From contig OY970167.1 in NCBI GenBank assembly GCA_963706725.1, positions 1,269,965-1,301,964 on the forward strand: DNA of 32,000 nucleotides, written 5' to 3'. The notes below the pieces were generated by a model. The model saw only the letters and a program-made list of their open reading frames with translations. It did not search any database and was not told the origin of the DNA. Source of the DNA: an uncultured Actinomycetota bacterium (GTDB lineage Bacteria > Actinomycetota > Thermoleophilia > Solirubrobacterales > Solirubrobacteraceae). The position numbers and the translations under genes were made by a program. Every line of letters begins with the position of its first letter. Position 1 is the stretch's first letter. This document shows, piece after piece, positions 7,466-17,526 of the stretch.

Positions 7466-8635
7466 TTAGTGGCGCCGGGGAAGGCGGACGGTGATTTCAA
7501 GGCCTCCGGTGGTGACGGCGGTGGCGTGCACAGTTCCGTTGTGGACGGTGGCGATCGATGAGACCAGGGCGAGGCCGAGGCCGAAACCACGGTGGCGGGT
7601 GCGGTCATCCAGTCGGGTGAACGGCAGAAGCAGGCGCTCGACCTGATCGGGTGGGATGACCTGACCGGTGTTACTGATTCGGACCAGAGACGCTCCGTTG
7701 TCGGTGGAGGTCGAGACTTCCACGGTGCCTCCCGCGACGTTGTAGAGCTCAGCGTTGTCCAGCAGGTTCGCCACCAGCCGTTCGAGCAGCACGCCGTCGC
7801 CGGTTACGGGAGCTTCGTCGAGTGTGACGGTGCGGGTGATGCCGTTGGCCGTGCGTCCGTCGAGCGCATCCTCCACGACGGCCGCCAGATCGAGCGGCTC
7901 GCGGAACTCGCGCGCCTGCTCGCCACGCGCGAGGATCAGCAGCACCTCGATCAGGCGTTCGGAGTGATTGACGGCCTGGCGGACCTCACCGGCCATCGAC
8001 AACAGCTCCTCGAGAGTTGGCTGCGGTTTGCCCAGCACCACGTCAATCGCGGTTCGCATCACGGTCAAGGGCGTGCGCAGCTCGTGGCTTGCGTTGGCGA
8101 TGAACTGCCGCTGGCTAGCGAACGCGCGATCCAGCCGCGCCAGCATGTTGTCGAAGGTGTCGGCGAGCTCACGCAGCTCATCGCGTGGGCCCTGCAGACC
8201 GATGCGCTGCGAGAGGTCCTGCTCACTGGCAGCGCGAGCGGCCGCTGTCAGCCGCTGCACCGGCCGTAGGATCCGTCCTGCTAGCCCCCAGCCGGCGACG
8301 GCGGCCAGCAGCGTCATGCCTGCCAGGCCGAACAGTGAGTAGCTCAGCAGGTGGTTGGCGGTGGTGTTGCGCTGCGCGGCCACGCCGGTCCGGACACCGA
8401 TGACATACAGCGCCGCGCACTTCTGCATTGACCCGGGGCTGCCGTGGCGGTGCACCGCTGTGATGCAACCTGCGATCGCGCGTCTGGTAGCACGCGGGAT
8501 CGCGGTGGTTGCAGACGGATGCAGGCTGTGCACGACCAGCACATAGGTGATCGCCACCAGCGCTGCGCCGCCCAGCGCGAACAGCGACATGTAGAGCAGC
8601 GTCAGCCGCGAGCGGGCGCTGAGGTCGATCCTCAT
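7466..8635 (-). CDS. Sensor histidine kinase (two TM segments, HAMP, HisKA, HATPase_c)
   Basis: It has the H-box FIANASHELRTPLTVM, the N-box LVANLLDNAELYN, and G-boxes ISNTGQVIP and GFGLGLALV. Two N-terminal TM segments flank a short loop containing two Cys residues. Its start overlaps the response-regulator stop by 4 nt. Confidence 0.92.
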   Translation of the reverse strand: MRIDLSARSRLTLLYMSLFALGGAALVAITYVLVVHSLHPSATTAIPRATRRAIAGCITAVHRHGSPGSMQKCAALYVIGVRTGVAAQRNTTANHLLSYSLFGLAGMTLLAAVAGWGLAGRILRPVQRLTAAARAASEQDLSQRIGLQGPRDELRELADTFDNMLARLDRAFASQRQFIANASHELRTPLTVMRTAIDVVLGKPQPTLEELLSMAGEVRQAVNHSERLIEVLLILARGEQAREFREPLDLAAVVEDALDGRTANGITRTVTLDEAPVTGDGVLLERLVANLLDNAELYNVAGGTVEVSTSTDNGASLVRISNTGQVIPPDQVERLLLPFTRLDDRTRHRGFGLGLALVSSIATVHNGTVHATAVTTGGLEITVRLPRRH

Positions 8636-9282
8636 AGCCGGTAGCCGACGCCGATGATCGTCTCGATCAGCGGCGGGTCGCCGAGTTTGCGTCGCAGCCG
8701 GGCGACGGTCACGGCGACCGTGTTGCTGAATGGGTCAGCGTGGGCGTCCCAGACGTGCTCAAGCAGGTGCTCAGCGCTGAGCGCAGCGCCGTCCGCGTCG
8801 GCCAGGCACTCCAGCACCCCGAACTCTTTGCGCGTTAGCGTCAGGGGTATCCCGGCCCGGCTGGCGCGGTGGCGCGCGCGATCGACGATCAGGTCACCGC
8901 GAGTCACCACGGCGGGTGAGCCCGGCCCTCGGCGCCCCAGCGCACGGATCCGCGCGACCAGCTCGTTGAACGCGAACGGCTTGCAGAGGTAGTCGTCCGC
9001 TCCGAGCTCCAGCCCGTCGACCCGGTCCTCGACATCATCGGCCGCCGTCAGCATCAGGATCCTGCTGAGCGAGTCGTCGCGCACCAGCCGGCGGCAGACG
9101 CTGTCACCGTGCACGTTCGGTAGGTCGCGGTCCAGCACCACCACGTCGTAACCGGTGCTGGTCGTCTGCTGCAGGGCGGCCGCGCCGTCGTATACGACAT
9201 CCACGGCAAAGCCCGCGTCGCGCAGCCCCTCGCCGATGCGCTCTGCCAGCGCGACGTGATCCTCCACGACCAACACTCGCAT
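8632..9282 (-). CDS. OmpR/PhoB-family response regulator
   Basis: The receiver domain reads MRVLVVEDHVALAERIGEGLRDAGFAVDVVYDG...DVVVLDRDLP...LMLTA...KPF. The winged-helix C-terminus reads LTRKEFGVLECL...TVAVTVARLRRKL...IETIIGVGYRL. The start was chosen at the ATG at 9282 (MRVLVVED) rather than the longer ORF start at 9420. Confidence 0.92.
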   Translation of the reverse strand: MRVLVVEDHVALAERIGEGLRDAGFAVDVVYDGAAALQQTTSTGYDVVVLDRDLPNVHGDSVCRRLVRDDSLSRILMLTAADDVEDRVDGLELGADDYLCKPFAFNELVARIRALGRRGPGSPAVVTRGDLIVDRARHRASRAGIPLTLTRKEFGVLECLADADGAALSAEHLLEHVWDAHADPFSNTVAVTVARLRRKLGDPPLIETIIGVGYRL

Positions 9283-9370
9283 GCGCACATCATGCACCCA
9301 CCCGGATGACATCCGTGTAACAGGCGCTGTACGAGGGGTGTCATGGGCAGACTGATAGACCAACGGGCCT

Positions 9371-9943
9371 GTGAAGACACAGCACCCGATCACCAGAACC
9401 GCGGCAGTAGCGATGGCCACCTCAGCCCTGGGGGTGCTGGTGGCAGCCTGTGGCGGCAGCCCCTCGTCCAGCCGCGCACAAACCTCAACGCCCGGAAAGG
9501 GCTCGACGCGCGTGCCGAGGGGGCTTGCCTACTCCCGCTGCATGCGCTCCCACGGCGTAACGAACTTCCCCGACCCGAGCCCCGCCGGGGGCTACTCCTT
9601 CAGTGGCTCCACCAGCTCACCTGCGTTCAAGTCAGCACAAAGAGCGTGCGCGAACCTGGTACCGGTGAAGACCATCCCCAACTCGGCAAGCGCCACCCCG
9701 CAGCAGCAGGCGCGGTATAACGCGCAGCTGATCAGATGGGCGAAGTGCATGCGTCACAGCGGGTACCCGCAGCTCCCTGATCCGACCCCCGGCAGCCCCC
9801 AACCGGGCAAGGTCCGCGGGACAGCTTGGGGAGGCGGGCCGGGCTGGTGGATCGACATCCCGCCCTCAATCAACGCGTACTCGTCGGCCTTCAGCAACAC
9901 CGCGCAGACCTGCGACACGCGGACCCACCAAACGTACCGCTAG
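9371..9943 (+). CDS. Secreted lipoprotein with a duplicated CMRxxG-PDP cysteine motif
   Basis: It has a signal peptide with the lipobox LVAAC (MKTQHPITRTAAVAMATSALGVLVAACGG). Two repeats are present: RCMRSHGVTNFPDPSP and KCMRHSGYPQLPDPTP. It is divergent from the two-component operon. Confidence 0.75.
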   Translation: MKTQHPITRTAAVAMATSALGVLVAACGGSPSSSRAQTSTPGKGSTRVPRGLAYSRCMRSHGVTNFPDPSPAGGYSFSGSTSSPAFKSAQRACANLVPVKTIPNSASATPQQQARYNAQLIRWAKCMRHSGYPQLPDPTPGSPQPGKVRGTAWGGGPGWWIDIPPSINAYSSAFSNTAQTCDTRTHQTYR

Positions 9944-10150: not shown

Positions 10151-10375
10151 GGGAGACACAGATCAGCACGGCAGATGGCGCGGGAGCCTTGCCCGGCGAT
10201 CGCTGCTGCGCCACAGCCCGGCGCTGGGCTCCGCAACGACCGCCGGAGACCTCCCCCCAAACCAGGATGAGACACATCTCGGGTTAGACACACAATCGGG
10301 ATGTGGGGAAGCCCTGATTGCCGGGCTTGTCGGAGGCGTCAGACTTCGCGGACAGCGATCAGAGCGAGGGTCGAC

Positions 10376-11518
10376 ATGCAGCACCAGGAGTTGACGCCAA
10401 TGGTGATTGGGCCGGAGGCACTTGACCTGCTGATCGCAACGCTGCGGTCTGGCGGGTTCCGGGTGCTCGGCCCAACGCTGCGCGACGGTGCGATCGTCTA
10501 TGACGACATCCAGAGCGCGGCACAGTTGCCAGCCGGCTGGACTGACGAGCAGGACGGCGGCAGCTACCGGCTGGTGCGCCGCGACGATGACGCCCGCTTC
10601 GGCTACGCGGTCGGCCCCCACTCGTGGAAGCGATTCCTTTTCCGACCTGAGCTACGACTCTGGCAGGCGCGGCGATCCGGCTCGGGCGAAATGGTCGTCG
10701 AGGAGGAGTCCACCTCAGACCAGCGGATGGCCTTCATCGGGGTGCGCTCCTGTGAGCTGCACGCGATCCAGATCCAGGACCGTGTCTTCATGGGCGGGCA
10801 TCACGTGGACCGCGACTACGCGGCCCAGCGTGAGGGCGCATTCCTGGTCGCGGTCAACTGCATAACCCCCGGCGGGACCTGCTTCTGCACGTCGATGGGC
10901 ACAGGACCCAAGGTCGACGCCGGATATGACATTGCGCTGACGGAACTGCTCGTCGGAGATCACCGGTTCCTGGCCGAGGCCGGGACAGAGCGTGGCGCAT
11001 CCGTGCTGGCGGCACTTCCGGGACGACCCGCCAGCGACGCGGATCTGTCCTGCGCCGGAGCAGCAACCGACGCCGCCGCCGCACAGATGGGACGCACGAT
11101 GGAGGTCAGCGACATTCGTGACCTGCTGGCGCGCAACCTCGAGCATCCGCGCTGGGACGACGTTGCCGCCCGCTGCCTGAGCTGCGGAAACTGCACACAG
11201 GTTTGCCCCACTTGCTTCTGTTCCTCTGTCGAGGACAGCAGCGACCTCAGTGGCGGCACGGCGACGCGCACGCGCGTCTGGGACACCTGCTTCTCCGTCG
11301 AGTACTCCCATATCCACGGGGGCAGCATCCGCCCCTCGTCCCGTTCGCGCTACCGGCAGTGGATGACACACAAGCTGGGCACCTGGATCGACCAGTTCGG
11401 GACTTCGGGGTGTGTCGGCTGCGGACGTTGCATCACCTGGTGCCCGGTCGCGATCGACATCACGCAGGAAGTCAACGCGATCCGCGCGACGGAGGGTTCC
11501 AGTGCAACGATCGCTTGA
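10376..11518 (+). CDS. hyhB: [NiFe]-hydrogenase group-3b-type beta subunit (AsrA/HydB-like 4Fe-4S dicluster protein)
   Basis: It carries the Cys clusters [16 protein letters not shown] and [12 protein letters not shown], plus [15 protein letters not shown] lies 6 nt upstream of the ATG at 10376. It is the first gene of a hydrogenase cluster. Confidence 0.85.
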
Positions 11519-11972
11519 GACCTTGCTGGTCGACACCCCGCTGTTTGAGGGCCTCGACGCGGACACGCTCGCGCTGCTGGCAGGATGCGCCAGGAACGTC
11601 CACTTCGATCAGGATTCGACGGTGATCCGGCGGGGAGACCAGGCGGACGACTTCTACCTGATCCGTCACGGCAGCGTGACCCTTGAAACGTACGTGCCCG
11701 GTCGCGGGCCGGTCACGATCGAGACGCTCGAGAGCGGCGAGGTGCTCGGCTGGTCCTGGCTATTTCCGCCATACCGATGGCACCTGGATGCGCGGGCGCT
11801 GACCGCCGTGCGTGCGACCGCCTTCGACGGCGCATGCCTGCGCGGCAAATGTGAGCACGACCCAGCACTCGGCTATGCGCTGATGTCCCGCTTCGCACAG
11901 GTCCTGATCGAGCGCCTGCAGTGGACACGGCTCCGACTCCTCGACGTCTACGGTGACCATGAGCATCGCTGA
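11502..11972 (+). CDS. Stand-alone cyclic-nucleotide-binding-domain (CAP/Crp effector-domain-like) protein with no DNA-binding domain
   Basis: [49 protein letters not shown]...[25 protein letters not shown] has the cNMP-binding beta-roll pattern. The GTG at 11502 is preceded by GGAGGG at a 5-nt spacing and overlaps the hyhB stop by 17 nt. The protein is 156 aa. Confidence 0.8.
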
Positions 11973-12792
11973 GCAGCTCACCCCGGGCGTGATGGTGCCT
12001 CGAGCATTCAACCTCAGCGCCCGTCGGCAGGACACGGCCGACACGTTCACGCTGGCGCTCGAGCCGCAGGCCGGCGAGGCGCCGCCGATCGCCCCGGGTC
12101 AGTTCATGATGGTCTACGCGTTCGGGATCGGCGAGGTGCCGATCTCAGTGAGCGGGGCGTCAGCAACAGAGGTCGTGCTCACAGTCCGTGCGGTCGGCGC
12201 GGTGTCGAACGCGATCTGCCGTGCGCCGGTCGGCAGCATGCTCGGGATGCGCGGTCCGTTCGGAAATTCGTGGCCGATCGCAAGCGCCGCCGGCACTGAC
12301 GTGATCGTGGTGGCGGGCGGCATCGGTCTGGCCCCGCTGCGCATGCTGATCCGGCAGGTGATCGGCAACCGCGGCGACTTTTCAGCTTTCTGCCTTCTCT
12401 ATGGCGCGCGCACGCCGGGGGACCTGCTCTACATGAACGAGATCGCGGGCTGGCGTCAGGCTGCGGATGTGGCCGTCACGGTCGACGCCGCGGACGCCGA
12501 CTGGACGGGCCAGGTGGGTGTGGTTCCGAAGCTGGTCAGCGCTGCGCGCTTTGCCGGCAGGTCCGCCCACGCCTTCGTCTGCGGCCCCGAGATCATGATG
12601 GACTTCACGGCCCAGGCTCTGCTCAAACGTGGCGTTCCCCCGGAGCAGATCCACCTCTCGATGGAGCGCCACATGGACTGCGGGGTCGGGCTGTGCGGGC
12701 ACTGCCAGCTCGGTCCGACCCTGATCTGCCGTGACGGCGCCATCTATAGCCACGCCGAGATCGCATCGTTGATGCGGGTGCGTGAGCTGTGA
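11953..12792 (+). CDS. hyhG: Hydrogenase gamma subunit (AsrB/PyrK-like FAD/NAD(P)-binding protein with a C-terminal 2Fe-2S site)
   Basis: It has a ferredoxin-reductase-type fold pattern ([27 protein letters not shown]) and the motif [10 protein letters not shown]...CRDG. The start is GTG at 11953 or ATG at 11959. Confidence 0.85.
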
Positions 12793-13562
12793 GCCCGACA
12801 GACAAGCCGACGCTGGCGGTTTGGAAGTTCGCATCCTGCGACGGCTGCCAACTGAGCCTGCTCGACCTCGAGGACGAGCTGTTGACGCTCGCGGGCGCGG
12901 TCGAGATCGCGGAGTTCCACGAGGCCACGAGCCACAACGTCGCCGGCCCGTACGACCTGTCGCTGGTCGAGGGCTCCATCACCACCGAGCATGACCTGCG
13001 GCGCATCCAGGAGGTGCGCCGCAGGTCCCGAGCGCTGGTGACGATCGGCGCCTGCGCGACCTCCGGTGGCATCCAGGCACTGCGGAACTTCGGTGACGTG
13101 GCCGAGTTTGCAGCCGCGGTCTACGCATCGCCGCAGTACATCTCGACGCTGTCCACCTCCACCCCAATCGCCGCGCACGTCGATGTGGACTACGAACTGC
13201 ACGGTTGCCCGATCGACAAGCACCAGCTGTTTGAGGTCATCAGTGCTCTGCTCAACGGACGCCGGCCCGCGATCGCTTCCACCAGTGTCTGCACCGAGTG
13301 CAAGCGCCGCGGGATCGTGTGCGTCACCGTGGCGCACGGCACCCCCTGCCTCGGCCCGGTGACACACGCCGGCTGTGGTGCACTCTGCCCCGCTTACAAC
13401 CGCGGCTGCTTCGGCTGCTACGGCCCCATGGAAACGCCAAATACCGACGCGCTGCTGCCGCTGCTGCGCGCTCGAGGTCTCGACGACGACGGTGTGCGGC
13501 GGGTCTTCCAGACGTTCAACGCGGCCGCTGAGCCGTTCCGTAGAGCCGTGAGCGATGGGTGA
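12789..13562 (+). CDS. hyhS: [NiFe]-hydrogenase small (delta) subunit, NuoB-like
   Basis: It contains [22 protein letters not shown] and the C-terminal cluster [13 protein letters not shown]...[15 protein letters not shown]...GCFGCYGP. It has a GTGA overlap with the gamma subunit gene. Confidence 0.88.
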
Positions 13563-14847
13563 ACGGCGCACAATCCGGACGGACTACCTGGCGCGCGTCG
13601 AGGGTGAGGGCTCGTTCACCGTCCAGATCGAGCACGGGCGCGTCGAGCACGCGGAACTGCGGATCTTCGAGCCGCCACGGTTCTTCGAGGCGCTGCTGCG
13701 CGGACGCCTGTTCACGGAGGCGCCCGACATCACCGCCCGCATCTGCGGGATCTGCCCGGTGGCCTATCAGACGAGCTCGATGAACGCCATGGAGAACCTC
13801 TGTGACGTCGAGGTACCGGAGCCGGTTCGCATGCTGCGACGGATGCTCTACTGCGGCGAGTGGATCGAGAGCCACGCGCTTCATGTGTACATGCTGCACG
13901 CGCCTGACTTTCTCGGCTACGCGGGCGCGGTCGAACTGGCGCGCGACGCCCCGCAGATCGTGGAGCGCGGGCTGCGGCTGAAGAAGGCCGGCAACGAGTT
14001 GATGCGGCTCATCGGCGGTCGCGAGATCCACCCGATCAACGTCCGGGTCGGCGGCTTCTACCGGGCACCGTCCAGACGAGAGCTGTCGACGTTGGTGGAG
14101 CCGCTGCGTCGCGCGCGCGATGAGGCCGTCGAGACCGTTCGTTGGACCGCCGGATTCGACTTTCCAGAGCGCGAGGTCGAGTGCGAACTGGTCGCGCTCT
14201 CCCATCCGGAGGACTACGCGATCGAGCGCGGCCGGATCCGGTCAGACCGCGGCCTCGACATCACCGTCCCGGAGTACACCGAGCATTTCGAGGAGGAGCA
14301 CGTCGAGCGTTCGACAGCGCTGCACTCGCATCTGCGGGAGCGCGGAACCTACCTGTGCGGCCCACTGGCGCGGTACTCGTTGAACCACGCGCAGCTCTCG
14401 CCACTTGCGCTCGAGCTCGCGCGTGAGGCCGGGCTCGGTGAGACCTGTCGCAATCCGTTCCGGAGCATCGTCGTGCGCAGCGTCGAGCTCGTCTACGCAT
14501 GTGACGAGGCTCTGAGGCTGATCGACGCCTACGAGGAGCCGGGATTCTCGGGGGTCGATGTCTCACCGCGGGCCGGGAGTGGGCATGGCGCCAGCGAAGC
14601 TCCGCGCGGGATGCTCTACCACCGCTACAGGATCGACTCCACCGGCACGATCCTCGAAGCGCAGATCGTGCCGCCAACCTCGCAAAACCAGCAGGCGATC
14701 GAGGATGACCTGAAGGACGTGGTCCAGCGCAACCTCGAGCTCGAGGACGAACGTCTGCGATCGCTGTGCGAGCAGACCATCCGAAACTACGACCCATGCA
14801 TCTCCTGCGCCACGCATTTCCTCCGACTGGAGGTCAGCGGCCGATGA
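13555..14847 (+). CDS. hyhL: [NiFe]-hydrogenase large (alpha) catalytic subunit
   Basis: The N-terminal Ni-binding motif is [10 protein letters not shown] (the canonical form is RxCGxCxxxH). The C-terminal motif is DPCISCATH, followed by the 9-aa extension FLRLEVSGR, as expected for an endopeptidase-processed precursor. Confidence 0.9.
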
Positions 14848-15344
14848 CTGATCCGCGGCACGTCGTGGTCTGCGTTGGAAACCGCTTTCGACGCGACGAC
14901 AGCGTCGGGTTGCACGTCGCAGACGGACTCCGGGAGTTGGTGCCCGAGGGAGTCGAGGTTCTCACCCTGGAGGGCGAACCGACCACGTTGCTGGACATCT
15001 TCGCCGGCTCAGAGCTCGCGATCCTGGTGGACGCCGTAGCAGCCGCCGCCGCGCCCGGAGTGATCCACCGGTTCGATGCGACCGTCGAACCCGTGCCCGG
15101 GAGCGTGTTCGGCACCTCGTCGCATGCCTTCGGCCTCGGCGAGACAATCGAGCTGGCCAGGACCCTCGGGAGGCTTCACGGCCGTGTTCTCGTCTACGGC
15201 ATCACCGGCGAGGACTTCGACGCCGGAGAGGGGCTGAGCCCGAGCGTCGCAAAAGCGGCTGATGCCGTCGCCGCCCGGATTCTCGATGACCTTGCAGTGT
15301 CAGTCCAGCAAGCTGCCCGAGCGAAAGGAGCGGACCGTGCATGA
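14844..15344 (+). CDS. Hydrogenase maturation endopeptidase (HycI/HoxW family)
   Basis: The sequence reads [23 protein letters not shown]...LAILVDAV...[14 protein letters not shown]. The GNxxxxDDxxG, D and H metal-ligand pattern is typical of this family. It has an ATGA overlap with the large-subunit stop. Confidence 0.85.
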
Positions 15345-15618
15345 GCACGCACTGATGGCCGATGTGACCCGAAAACTGGAGCAGACCGCGGCGGAGGCGG
15401 GCGCGAACCGAGTGACCCGGGTCGTCGTGCACCTCGGCGCCCTCTCCCACTTCACTCCGGAGCACTTCGAGGAGCACTTCGTGGAGGCCACGCGCGGCAC
15501 CGTCGCCGAAGGGGCCGAGGTTGTCGCGACGCTCGATACCGACATCACCTCCTCGGAGGCCGCTGATGTCATGGTGGAGAGCGTCGAACTCGAGGTTCCA
15601 GATCGGAAGGCAAGTTGA
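15337..15618 (+). CDS. hypA: HypA-like nickel metallochaperone lacking the CxxC...CxxC zinc domain (93 aa)
   Basis: A GTG start gives the N-terminus [62 protein letters not shown], matching the HypA MHE...IG.LS...PE.L.F.F pattern. AAGGAG lies 7 nt upstream. The whole protein contains no cysteine. Confidence 0.7.
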   Translation: MHEHALMADVTRKLEQTAAEAGANRVTRVVVHLGALSHFTPEHFEEHFVEATRGTVAEGAEVVATLDTDITSSEAADVMVESVELEVPDRKAS

Positions 15619-15851
15619 TGTGTCTCGGATCGATCGCACGGATAGTCGCCATTCGCAACGATGCCGGCGTGGCTGTCGGGCGGCTGGAGGATGGGTGTGA
15701 GGTTCCACTGTCGTTCGTTCCGCAGGCGCGCGTTGGAGATCGGCTGTTGCTGCATCTGGGCATCCCAGTCGAGGTCCTCGACCCCGACGCGGCTGAGGAG
15801 GCGTTGGCCCTGCGTGGAGCGAGCACAGAGCCGGGAGGCGATCAACGGTGA
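15618..15851 (+). CDS. hypC: HypC/HupF-family hydrogenase assembly chaperone
   Basis: It begins MCLGSIARIVAI, with the essential N-terminal Cys, and contains VGDRLLLHLGIPVEVLDPDAAEEA (HypC GDxVLVHxG pattern). The start was taken at the ATG at 15618, not the TTG at 15615. It is 77 aa. Confidence 0.8.
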   Translation: MCLGSIARIVAIRNDAGVAVGRLEDGCEVPLSFVPQARVGDRLLLHLGIPVEVLDPDAAEEALALRGASTEPGGDQR

Positions 15852-16750
15852 GCATCCGTAAGACAGGTATCGCGTTGGCGTTTGTCAGCGCCGTCATCAG
15901 CGGCGTGTCGATCTACGTCAACGGGTTGGGCGTCAAGCACTTTCCCGACGCGAGCGTCTACACAACCGCCAAGAATGGCGTCGCTGGGCTGCTCCTGCTC
16001 GTCGCACTCGTTGCCGTGCCCTCACGGCGCCCCCTTCCAAGGCCGAGACGACGGGCGGCTCTGCCGCTGCTCGCTGTGGCGGTCATCGGGGGTAGCGTGC
16101 CGTTCATCCTCTTCTTCGAGGGTCTCGCCCGGGCGCAATCGACGCAGGCCGCGTTCATCCAGAAGACGCTGGTGATCTGGGTGGCGATCCTGGCGGTCCC
16201 CCTGTTGAAGGAGCGCCTCCGCTGGCCGCACGCGCTGGCGATCGCGCTGCTGCTCGGTGGAGAGGCATGGCTTGCCGGTAAGGCCGGCCATATCGCGTTC
16301 GGCAGCGGCGAGGCGATGATCCTCGCGGCCACCCTGATGTGGGCCGTGGAGATCGTCTACGTCAAACGACTGATGGACAGCTTCGATCCGCGGCTGCTCG
16401 CCACCGCCAGGATGGCGCTCGGCGCGGTACTGCTGATCGCCTGGGTGCTGATCACGGGCAAGGCCGGTCAGCTGCTTGCGCTCAGCGGCGTGGAGTGGCG
16501 CTGGGTGCTGCTCACGGGCGTGCTCCTGGCCGGCTACGTGGGCACATGGTATGCGGCGCTGGCGTGTGCTCCCGCGGTAGACGTGACCGCAGTGCTCGTA
16601 TTCGGCGCAGTCATCACCGCGCTGCTGTCAGGCGCGTCCGGGTCGGCGTCGGTCAACGCCCCAGCCCTGCTGTTGGTGATCGCGGGTTGCGGGATCATCG
16701 CCTGGTCGCCACTGCGCGGCACTGATGCCCGATCTGCGAGCCCATCATGA
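15848..16750 (+). CDS. EamA/DMT-superfamily transporter (10 predicted TM segments)
   Basis: It has two repeated five-TM halves, highly hydrophobic, with typical EamA features (GGSVPFILFFEGLARA; ILAATLMWAVEIVYVKRL). It has GTGA and ATGA overlaps with the genes on either side. Confidence 0.75.
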   Translation: MSIRKTGIALAFVSAVISGVSIYVNGLGVKHFPDASVYTTAKNGVAGLLLLVALVAVPSRRPLPRPRRRAALPLLAVAVIGGSVPFILFFEGLARAQSTQAAFIQKTLVIWVAILAVPLLKERLRWPHALAIALLLGGEAWLAGKAGHIAFGSGEAMILAATLMWAVEIVYVKRLMDSFDPRLLATARMALGAVLLIAWVLITGKAGQLLALSGVEWRWVLLTGVLLAGYVGTWYAALACAPAVDVTAVLVFGAVITALLSGASGSASVNAPALLLVIAGCGIIAWSPLRGTDARSASPS

Positions 16751-17526
16751 ACGTCGCGGCGCAGCTACCCACCGCTCCCGGGCCGCTGCTGTTCGCGCGA
16801 TACGCATACCCGCCTAACGCGCTGGGACTGTGCGGAGCTGACGGCCCGCGCGAGCTGCTCGAATACGGGGATGCGCACGTGTCCGATCTCGGCCTGGCAG
16901 AGGTCGCGCGGACGTTTGACGGCGCATGGCCTTACCTCGAGCTGATCGCCGGCGCCAACGGCATCGGCGATCCACTCGACGCACGCGTGGTCGAGGCCTA
17001 TTGGGTCGGCAACGAGCTGCTCGGAAGCGTGAGCCCGAGCGACCTCGCACGCAATATCGCGGACAGGTTCAGCGGACGGATCGGGCGCGCCCGGGAGCAC
17101 ATCGACGACACGATCGCCGCCGGCGCCGTTCCTCACCACTGCTTCCACGTCTTCGCCGTGTACCCGTGGCTGGGACTGCTGCGTACCGGCGTGGTCGATC
17201 AGCCGCTGCACATCCTCGACCAATGCCGGATCACTCCCGCGGTGGTGGATTCAGTTGGGCCGCACGACACACTGACGGTCCTCGCCCGACCGCTCGGCTG
17301 GGCCGGCGGGCGGCTGTTCCTCGGAGAGCCGGCAGCGCGCGCGGTCCGCTGGCAGACCGACGGCCTCGCCTTCGTCACTGAGCCCCAACCGGGGGACCGT
17401 GTCTCATTGCACTGGGACTTCGTCTGCGACCGCCTCTCGCCGCGCTCGGCGAGAAGCCTCCTGGCCGCAAACGAACGCGCGATCCGGGCCGTCAACGTCG
17501 CGGGCGCGGCGGCGGGTCTCGCGTAG
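16747..17526 (+). CDS. Conserved hypothetical protein with a C-terminal HypC-like domain (possibly the actinobacterial hydrogenase-cluster-associated DUF family; not verifiable here)
   Basis: It is 259 aa with codon usage like its neighbours. The C-terminal segment QCRITPAVVDSVGPHDTLTV...PGDRVSLHWDFVCDRLSPRSARSL parallels HypC (MCxGxPGxVV...GDxVLVHxGFA...A). It is the last gene of the coupled operon. Confidence 0.6.
   Translation: MNVAAQLPTAPGPLLFARYAYPPNALGLCGADGPRELLEYGDAHVSDLGLAEVARTFDGAWPYLELIAGANGIGDPLDARVVEAYWVGNELLGSVSPSDLARNIADRFSGRIGRAREHIDDTIAAGAVPHHCFHVFAVYPWLGLLRTGVVDQPLHILDQCRITPAVVDSVGPHDTLTVLARPLGWAGGRLFLGEPAARAVRWQTDGLAFVTEPQPGDRVSLHWDFVCDRLSPRSARSLLAANERAIRAVNVAGAAAGLA

Follow-up and report, generated by a model that had tools for sequence, protein, structure and literature searches.

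Group 3b [NiFe]-hydrogenases are believed to keep NAD(P)H and H2 in balance during hypoxia. The archaeal sulfhydrogenases of this group (sulfhydrogenase I (SHI) of Pyrococcus furiosus; Thermococcus kodakarensis) are composed of α, β, γ and δ subunits. According to PMC6688271, only this archaeal four-subunit group 3b enzyme had been characterized, and whether the bacterial enzymes depend on NADP had yet to be tested. A second relevant system is the soluble hydrogenase (SH) of Cupriavidus necator, which includes HoxI, a stand-alone cyclic nucleotide-binding (CNB) subunit that sits as a dimer on the HoxFU diaphorase and provides an NADPH activation site (PMC3702609, PMC3189943, PMC12809855). The present analysis concerns a 32,000-nucleotide window from an uncultured Actinomycetota bacterium (contig OY970167.1), in which a group 3b-type hydrogenase operon contains an additional gene (positions 11502 to 11972, forward strand) encoding a 156-residue protein of CNB fold. 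On the basis of its domain content, AlphaFold2 modeling, Foldseek searches, synteny and natural fusions, we propose that this CNB protein is a fifth, accessory subunit, namely a non-catalytic, regulatory component of the bacterial group 3b NAD(P)-linked [NiFe]-hydrogenase. Taken as a whole, this model is one that we hold with moderate confidence.

Structurally, the protein consists of a CNB domain and little else. PF00027 is its sole Pfam domain (residues 33 to 118, E = 8.3e-12), scoring 45.4 bits against a gathering cut-off of 27.5, and the same scan returns no helix-turn-helix (HTH) and no other domain; the DNA-binding domain of the CRP/FNR factors is thus lacking. The AlphaFold2 model, built on an alignment of database homologs 69–92% identical to the query (predicted local distance difference test score (pLDDT) 85; predicted TM-score (pTM) 0.79), comprises N-terminal helices, an eight-stranded β-roll, helix B (residues 110 to 119) and helix C (residues 121 to 141), and the chain ends ∼15 residues past helix C. 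The combination of a β-roll with B and C helices is the topology of the CNB domain, and Foldseek aligns the model to many such domains with a probability of 1.00. Searched against the PDB, it matches CNB domains exclusively, including those of actinobacterial CRP and GlxR, PKG and PKA. Over the full length, it is matched best by 3mdp, a stand-alone CNB protein (target-normalized TM-score 0.92, root-mean-square deviation 1.4 Å). A first-pass annotation, made from the DNA alone, had described a CNB-only protein of 156 residues with neither HTH nor enzymatic domain, and both the Pfam profile and the structural model agree with that description.

The gene is read from a GTG start at 11502 to a TGA stop at 11970–11972 (156 codons), in the same frame as a longer, mechanically called open reading frame (ORF; 11412–11972). 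A Shine-Dalgarno sequence, GGAGGG (11491 to 11496, forward strand), can be read within the end of the upstream β gene, 5 nucleotides (nt) before the GTG. Starts, overlaps and lengths were compared across 84 loci, most of which carry an ATG at the identical alignment position, and this supports the GTG 11502 start and the 156-residue reading. The gene overlaps the upstream β gene by 17 nt (β stop at 11518) and the downstream γ gene by 20 nt (γ GTG at 11953). The first-pass annotation had noted that both neighbors are overlapped.

The flanking genes, all on the forward strand, encode the four-subunit set of β (Fe-S), γ (FAD/NAD(P)), δ (small) and α (large) in a single operon. The β subunit (10301 to 11518) is a HydB/AsrA-like 4Fe-4S protein (Pfam Fer4_22, E = 8e-32) whose best NCBIfam match is sulfhydrogenase HydB/ShyB and whose single PDB match at E ≤ 1e-5 is 9nez_B, the β chain of sulfhydrogenase 1 (E = 2.5e-38). 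Its start is uncertain, with ortholog alignments beginning at about residues 27 to 39 and ATG 10376 or ATG 10400 as alternatives. The γ subunit (11953 to 12792, alternative start ATG 11959) is an AsrB/HydG-like FAD/NAD(P)-binding protein (Pfam NAD_binding_1 and DHODB_Fe-S_bind; NCBIfam AsrB, HydG and ShyC). It is followed by the small (δ) subunit (12789 to 13562; Pfam Oxidored_q6; NCBIfam ShyD and HydD) and by the large (α) subunit of group 3b type (13555 to 14847; Pfam NiFeSe_Hases; NCBIfam ShyA, E = 5.5e-85, and HydA). The α translation contains the RICGIC and DPCISC motifs, that is, the N- and C-terminal CxxC pairs, and its PDB matches are led by 9nez_D, the α chain of sulfhydrogenase 1 (E = 1.4e-63), and also include 5yxy_A (E ∼1e-63). 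For all four structural subunits the best NCBIfam match is a sulfhydrogenase model, yet below the curated equivalog cut-offs. Together with the sulfhydrogenase 1 chains matched by α and β, these assignments support the group 3b context that had been recognized in the first reading of the locus.

Genomic neighborhood analysis reveals that the position of the CNB gene is conserved. A word-indexed homolog search recovers more than 7900 database proteins at E ≤ 1e-3, the top 120 of which are all 153–161 residues long, and a HMMER scan of 1.84 billion cluster representatives gives 5664 matches at E ≤ 1e-3, with 213 at E ≤ 1e-30. Scanning one genome per species yielded at least 548 loci, and the best 80, which are the closest relatives, were analyzed for gene order. 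The CNB gene lies between β and γ in every one of them, followed by δ in 79 and α in 78, and the few loci without δ or α are cut by a contig end. The record titles of these 80 loci name Actinomycetota (Thermoleophilia/Gaiellales, Acidimicrobiia), Chloroflexota, Acidobacteriota, Verrucomicrobiota, Planctomycetota, Burkholderiales, Chromatiales, Ignavibacteria, Nitrospinota, Binatia and Armatimonadota, at least 10 phyla in total. The β-CNB-γ order is also annotated on plasmids of Burkholderia, Paraburkholderia, Pandoraea and Rhodococcus, is found in Streptomyces rimosus, and holds in relatives that are just 39–42% identical. Culturable carriers of the gene include Rhodococcus qingshengii, R. equi, Burkholderia thailandensis (on a plasmid), Frankia casuarinae and S. 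rimosus.

The overlaps recur as well. The CNB start overlaps the β stop by 4–29 nt in 72 of the 84 loci, and the γ start overlaps the CNB stop by 4–23 nt in 74. The CNB ORF itself is intact, at 150–161 residues, in all but three loci, with 50–76% amino-acid identity over at least 10 phyla. An intact reading frame across this range, together with the number of database matches, far exceeds chance, and we conclude from this conservation that the ORF is translated. Among the points raised in the first-pass annotation, linkage to hydrogenase genes in related genomes is conserved throughout the 80 loci, and the objection that the ORF might be untranslated is not upheld. Furthermore, mean Kimura distances (CNB 0.68, γ 0.67, β 0.58, α 0.48, δ 0.38) place the divergence of the CNB protein next to that of γ.

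The strongest evidence comes from natural fusions to the γ subunit. CNB-linker-γ proteins of 463–470 residues form ten clusters at 90% identity with ∼76 member sequences (one cluster being a truncated 428-residue entry), assigned by NCBI to Acidimicrobiales, and at one such locus the operon reads β-[CNB-γ]-δ-α-protease-HypC. Because the members vary in the linker too, the fusion represents a maintained reading frame rather than an assembly error. A second form, CNB-CNB-γ, carries two tandem copies (609–613 residues) and is assigned to Candidatus Dormibacteria. The exact 613-residue sequence occurs on 12 contigs, and the three loci displayed have β upstream and protease-HypC-DUF6390 downstream, with δ and α called cleanly in two of the three. 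Two independent fusions to one and the same neighbor, one of them in two copies, suggest that the free protein works bound to γ, likely as a dimer, and is retained in the mature enzyme. Other candidates were set aside: three apparent β-CNB fusions (P0209, P0283, P0311) contain out-of-frame-looking stretches or are fragments and were treated as assembly or frameshift artefacts, and three further proteins (P0147, P0261, P0134) have unrelated N-terminal parts and lie on short contigs.

Strict gene order, conserved overlaps, a γ-like divergence rate and the γ fusions are comparative grounds for regarding the CNB protein as most likely associated physically with the NAD(P)H-side (β-γ) module, probably in dimeric form, rather than as a transcription factor. 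In the proposed mechanism, the protein would be produced in translational coupling with β and γ. In its unfused form it would bind the diaphorase (β-γ) module, most probably through γ and most probably as a dimer, and there it would tune enzyme activation or electron flow instead of gene expression. The first-pass annotation had already preferred a partner of the enzyme to a transcription factor. Both halves of that preference find comparative support, a transcription factor being discounted by the absent HTH and the chain end after helix C, and a built-in partner being indicated by the synteny in 80 of 80 loci, the overlaps, the divergence at the γ rate and the fusions.

Database annotation points elsewhere. 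JGI names many homologs ‘CRP/FNR family transcriptional regulator’, and the gene in the Frankia group 3b cluster has been called a small transcriptional regulator (PMC11879354). The protein could then be a small regulator or anti-regulator, a CRP/FNR paralog devoid of the DNA-binding part that governs hydrogenase expression by titrating, or heterodimerizing with, a full-length CRP/FNR factor. Actinobacterial CRP and GlxR are indeed among its best full-length relatives with solved structures, the long C-helix is the dimerization element of CRP, and orphan copies exist outside hydrogenase operons. However, the chain stops after helix C with no HTH, the gene sits inside a set of structural genes with a double overlap kept over at least 10 phyla, and the protein diverges at the rate of γ. 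Moreover, a covalent γ fusion that arose in two phyla is hard to reconcile with a factor acting on other proteins or on DNA. A role in transcription is, on this evidence, unlikely.

A location between the two subunits to be served would also suit an assembly or maturation factor for β-γ, one that inserts FAD or Fe-S clusters, or serves as a scaffold during folding, and does not form part of the mature enzyme. In archaea and, judging from which genes are present, in some actinobacteria (PMC2799521), the core of the enzyme functions with no CNB protein, and one relative is encoded directly upstream of hypF. Yet the fused lineages keep the CNB domain covalently attached to γ in the finished protein, and the invariant aromatic pocket described below resembles a ligand site kept for function. 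No CNB-fold protein is known to act as a cofactor-insertion chaperone, and we consider this explanation improbable. The relative near hypF (L091, 4447–4908) is a 39%-identical family member that does not lie between β and γ.

Three cysteines are conserved in the 81 operon-embedded orthologs used for residue conservation: C29 and C112 at 98% each, and C117 at 86% (codons 11586–11588, 11835–11837 and 11850–11852, respectively). They raise the question of whether the protein is a thiol/redox or O2 sensor subunit in which these residues switch the enzyme on under hypoxia. Several loci lie amid universal stress protein (USP), CBS and hemerythrin stress genes, the Hyd3 hydrogenase of Mycobacterium smegmatis is hypoxia-induced (PMC2799521), and C29 is kept in both embedded and γ-fused forms while being lost in orphans. 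Against this, C112 and C117 are lost in most γ-fused forms, all three cysteines are missing from 3mdp, and three cysteines with no fourth ligand do not make a recognized cluster site. Such a thiol switch is very unlikely.

The first-pass annotation had called the phosphate-binding cassette divergent on the basis of a 21-residue peptide that corresponds to residues 79 to 99. The divergence holds, but the register was wrong: the real cassette runs from G83, and G79-E80 falls on the Gly-Asp with which the canonical G-[DE]-x-[FIL]-G-E motif opens, not on its ligand-binding Glu. The remodeled cassette G83-W84-S85-W86-L87-F88-P89-P90-Y91 (codons 11748 to 11774, forward strand) is the most conserved block of the protein, at 98–100% per position across the 81 orthologs. 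G83, S85, W86, P89 and P90 are invariant, and W84 (79 of 81), L87, F88 and Y91 are conserved at ≥98%. When the protein is aligned to PKG, whether as a single sequence or as a profile, G83-W84 coincides with the cassette Gly-Glu, and W93-H94 with the Arg-Thr pair by which the cyclic phosphate is held. In alignments to the family hidden Markov model (HMM), the G-E-L-G of HoxI and of Escherichia coli CRP falls on G-W-S-W. The nearest arginine, R92, is only 73% conserved, and a quarter of the orthologs have V, K or L there instead. The cassette thus diverges further than had been claimed, because the canonical Glu corresponds to W84 and the Arg-Ser/Thr pair to W93-H94.

The protein therefore lacks the cassette Gly-Glu plus Arg-Ser/Thr combination of a functional cyclic AMP (cAMP) or cyclic GMP (cGMP) receptor. 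With these hallmark contacts replaced by aromatic residues in the alignments, canonical cAMP or cGMP binding appears unlikely, in line with the earlier suspicion that the ligand may be something else. That the protein is a genuine cAMP/cGMP receptor, making the hydrogenase second-messenger-gated, is highly improbable. In its favor are a PF00027 score that exceeds the cut-off, a CNB fold borne out by AlphaFold2 and Foldseek, an acidic position 80 (79 of 81 orthologs have E or D) and Arg at position 92 in 73%. Against it, the ribose 2′-OH and phosphate contacts align to Trp and Trp-His, W84 is nearly universal, E80 aligns to the upstream Asp of G-D-x-x-G-E, and R92 gives way to V, K or L.

Within the fifth-subunit model, the rebuilt GWSWLFPPY pocket would more likely sense another small molecule. 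By analogy with HoxI, a pyridine nucleotide, NAD(P)(H), is the leading candidate, although one held with low confidence. The motif is also retained in family members remote from hydrogenase genes, which favors an intrinsic role, in ligand binding or in the fold, over a docking surface. A broader and rather doubtful conjecture is that the GWSWLFPPY proteins are a distinct, ancient class of CNB-fold sensors whose ligand is something other than cyclic nucleotides and NAD(P)H, such as a metabolite linked to redox state or hypoxia. A γ-bound dimer would then switch the group 3b hydrogenases of dominant soil phyla between H2 production and oxidation, or on and off, and the orphan and tandem copies would switch other targets.

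Several observations weigh against the CNB protein being a fifth subunit, or qualify how it would act as one. The open-access papers and preprints searched contain no physical data on the family, and neither the solved sulfhydrogenase 1 entries nor the hydrogenase entries of the PDB at large include a chain that matches the CNB query or the family profile. No relevant paper on the sulfhydrogenase 1 structures was found in this literature. The AlphaFold2 model of a natural CNB-γ fusion (P0208), taken as a stand-in for the complex, has a pTM of 0.40, models γ poorly and predicts no interface, and so weighs neither way on binding. Partial distance correlations with the CNB protein (γ 0.34, β 0.29, α 0.15, δ −0.02) are suggestive of co-evolution with γ and β, with the caveat that the pairs are non-independent and the values carry no significance test. 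The NAD(P)H idea draws solely on HoxI, which is not an ortholog.

Furthermore, not every group 3b operon contains the CNB gene. In M. smegmatis, Hyd3 corresponds to MSMEG_3931–3927 (β, γ, δ, α and protease), with no locus tag between β and γ (PMC2799521). In Streptomyces sp. NBC_01340, the operon reads β-γ-δ-α-protease with ∼125 bp between β and γ. A paralog occurs there 9 kb past the operon on the other strand (L087, 27136–27612, reverse), in an operon with a CBS-BON protein and surrounded by USP genes and a P-type ATPase-hemerythrin fusion. PLSDB offers a less biased sample for the presence of the gene than the 80 closest loci: among its 15 plasmid operons with a γ of >42% identity, 11 carry the CNB gene in the operon, and on four Streptomyces plasmids the sole detected copy lies 11–20 kb from γ (by record coordinates; NBC_01340 is the one viewed in detail). 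Some members of the family are encoded apart from hydrogenase genes, among them a tandem CNB-CNB protein that adjoins a resistance-nodulation-division (RND) efflux operon. Acting as a hydrogenase subunit can therefore not be the family's only role, and, since some group 3b operons and lineages do without the gene, the CNB protein would be an accessory that is dispensable for the catalytic core.

Besides the NBC_01340 paralog, orphan copies of the GWSWLFPPY family were seen at L085 (5929–6366) and in P0121. The L085 copy, from Streptomyces, neighbors USP, carbonic anhydrase and glucose-6-phosphate dehydrogenase genes in a stress island. On the Burkholderia plasmid, the hydrogenase operon itself is flanked by CBS-domain, universal stress and STAS-domain genes (L082, 5302–6772), and a CBS-domain gene lies near the operon of the Rhodococcus plasmid (L086, 1–571). 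The flanking genes on both plasmids are consistent with a hypoxia or stress island.

Downstream of α, the window continues on the forward strand with genes for maturation and for other functions. A hydrogenase maturation protease (14766 to 15344; Pfam HycI) follows, as it does in 72 of the 80 loci, and its real start is probably ATG 14844, overlapping the α stop. The next ORF (15262 to 15618) is short and HypA-like, with a partial Pfam HypA match that covers just positions 2–63 of the 112-position profile. It contains no cysteine and hence lacks the usual zinc CxxC...CxxC domain, and comparable short hypA matches occur after the protease in 30 of the 80 loci. HypC (15615 to 15851; Pfam HupF_HypC) is followed by an EamA transporter (15848–16750) and a DUF6390 protein (16747–17526), both translationally coupled to the hydrogenase/hyp genes. 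Of the 80 loci, 16 have EamA and 19 have DUF6390, and both are also present in the Dormibacteria loci L095–L097; from this recurrence, DUF6390 may be a hydrogenase-3b-linked protein. A two-gene pair, a HAMP histidine kinase with an OmpR-type response regulator (7466–8635 and 8632–9420), lies on the reverse strand ∼0.9 kb upstream of the operon and could exert transcriptional control over it.

The gene has been encountered before under other labels. In addition to the Frankia gene, the CNB gene in the Hyd-3b cluster of a methanotroph was labeled HoxI (PMC12319191), and a cluster listing for Rhodococcus equi includes it (PMC13332983). No experimental test of the family was found in these three papers or elsewhere in the literature searched, nor was any description of its pan-phylum conservation, its fusions or its rebuilt cassette. 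The CNB family is a real and widespread feature that has been mis-annotated as a transcription factor, and it varies the HoxI theme and is not a category of its own. Its reach matters because many bacteria of soils and sediments encode group 3b hydrogenases, and the recovered loci span at least 10 phyla. If bacterial enzymes do carry an extra sensor subunit with a rebuilt pocket, current models and heterologous expression of these enzymes miss a component, the ‘CRP/FNR transcriptional regulator’ annotation is wrong for thousands of genes, and the family would join HoxI as the second independent example of hydrogenase control by a recruited CNB domain. The natural one- and two-copy γ fusions provide direct handles for structural work.

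Among known proteins, the best full-length match by both structure and profile is 3mdp (Gmet_1532 of Geobacter metallireducens, a structural genomics entry of unassigned function), at 30% identity and 79 bits. Like the CNB protein, it is stand-alone and has a non-canonical cassette, G-V-S-S-L-I-K-P-Y, giving the common pattern G-x-S-x-L-x-x-P-Y, but neither the two Trp nor the three Cys of the family occur in it. The CRP/FNR factors (Mycobacterium tuberculosis CRP, Corynebacterium glutamicum GlxR and E. coli CRP) share the N-terminal effector fold and the long C-helix and are top Foldseek or profile matches. Unlike them, the CNB protein has no C-terminal winged-helix/HTH domain, its cAMP cassette residues are replaced, and its gene lies inside the structural genes of an enzyme. 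The archaeal group 3b sulfhydrogenases supply the chains that best match α and β of the window; compared with these four-subunit enzymes, the bacterial operon has an extra gene between β and γ.

HoxI of the C. necator enzyme (Ralstonia eutropha H16, group 3d, HoxFUYHI2) remains the closest functional parallel. It too is a stand-alone CNB fold of ∼160 residues (167 in HoxI) with no HTH, and its gene likewise belongs to an operon for a cytosolic, bidirectional, NAD(P)-linked [NiFe]-hydrogenase. HoxI forms a dimer attached to the diaphorase module and is dispensable for core catalysis (PMC3702609, PMC3189943). At high salt and alkaline pH, HoxI dissociates from the enzyme. Its cassette is likewise non-canonical (Arg replaced by His), and its ligand, NADPH, is not a cyclic nucleotide. 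The two proteins are nevertheless distinct. The CNB family was rejected as a HoxI ortholog at 24% identity; on the family HMM, HoxI scores 38.6 bits, close to E. coli CRP (30.6 bits), whereas members, orphans included, score 158–320 bits. HoxI keeps the cassette Gly-Glu where the CNB family has Gly-Trp, and its gene stands after the protease at the operon end rather than between β and γ. The partners are also unrelated, HoxFU being a NuoEFG-like FMN diaphorase and the CNB partners being AsrA/HydB-like Fe-S and AsrB/HydG-like FAD proteins. HoxI is absent from the one other soluble hydrogenase compared, that of Hydrogenophaga pseudoflava (PMC12809855), whereas the CNB family spans at least 10 phyla. 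The first-pass annotation had regarded a nucleotide- or metabolite-gated [NiFe]-hydrogenase as unusual, a view overtaken by the precedent of a CNB subunit in HoxI2 of the C. necator SH (PMC3702609, PMC3189943), whose stoichiometry is paralleled by the two CNB copies of the Dormibacteria γ fusion.

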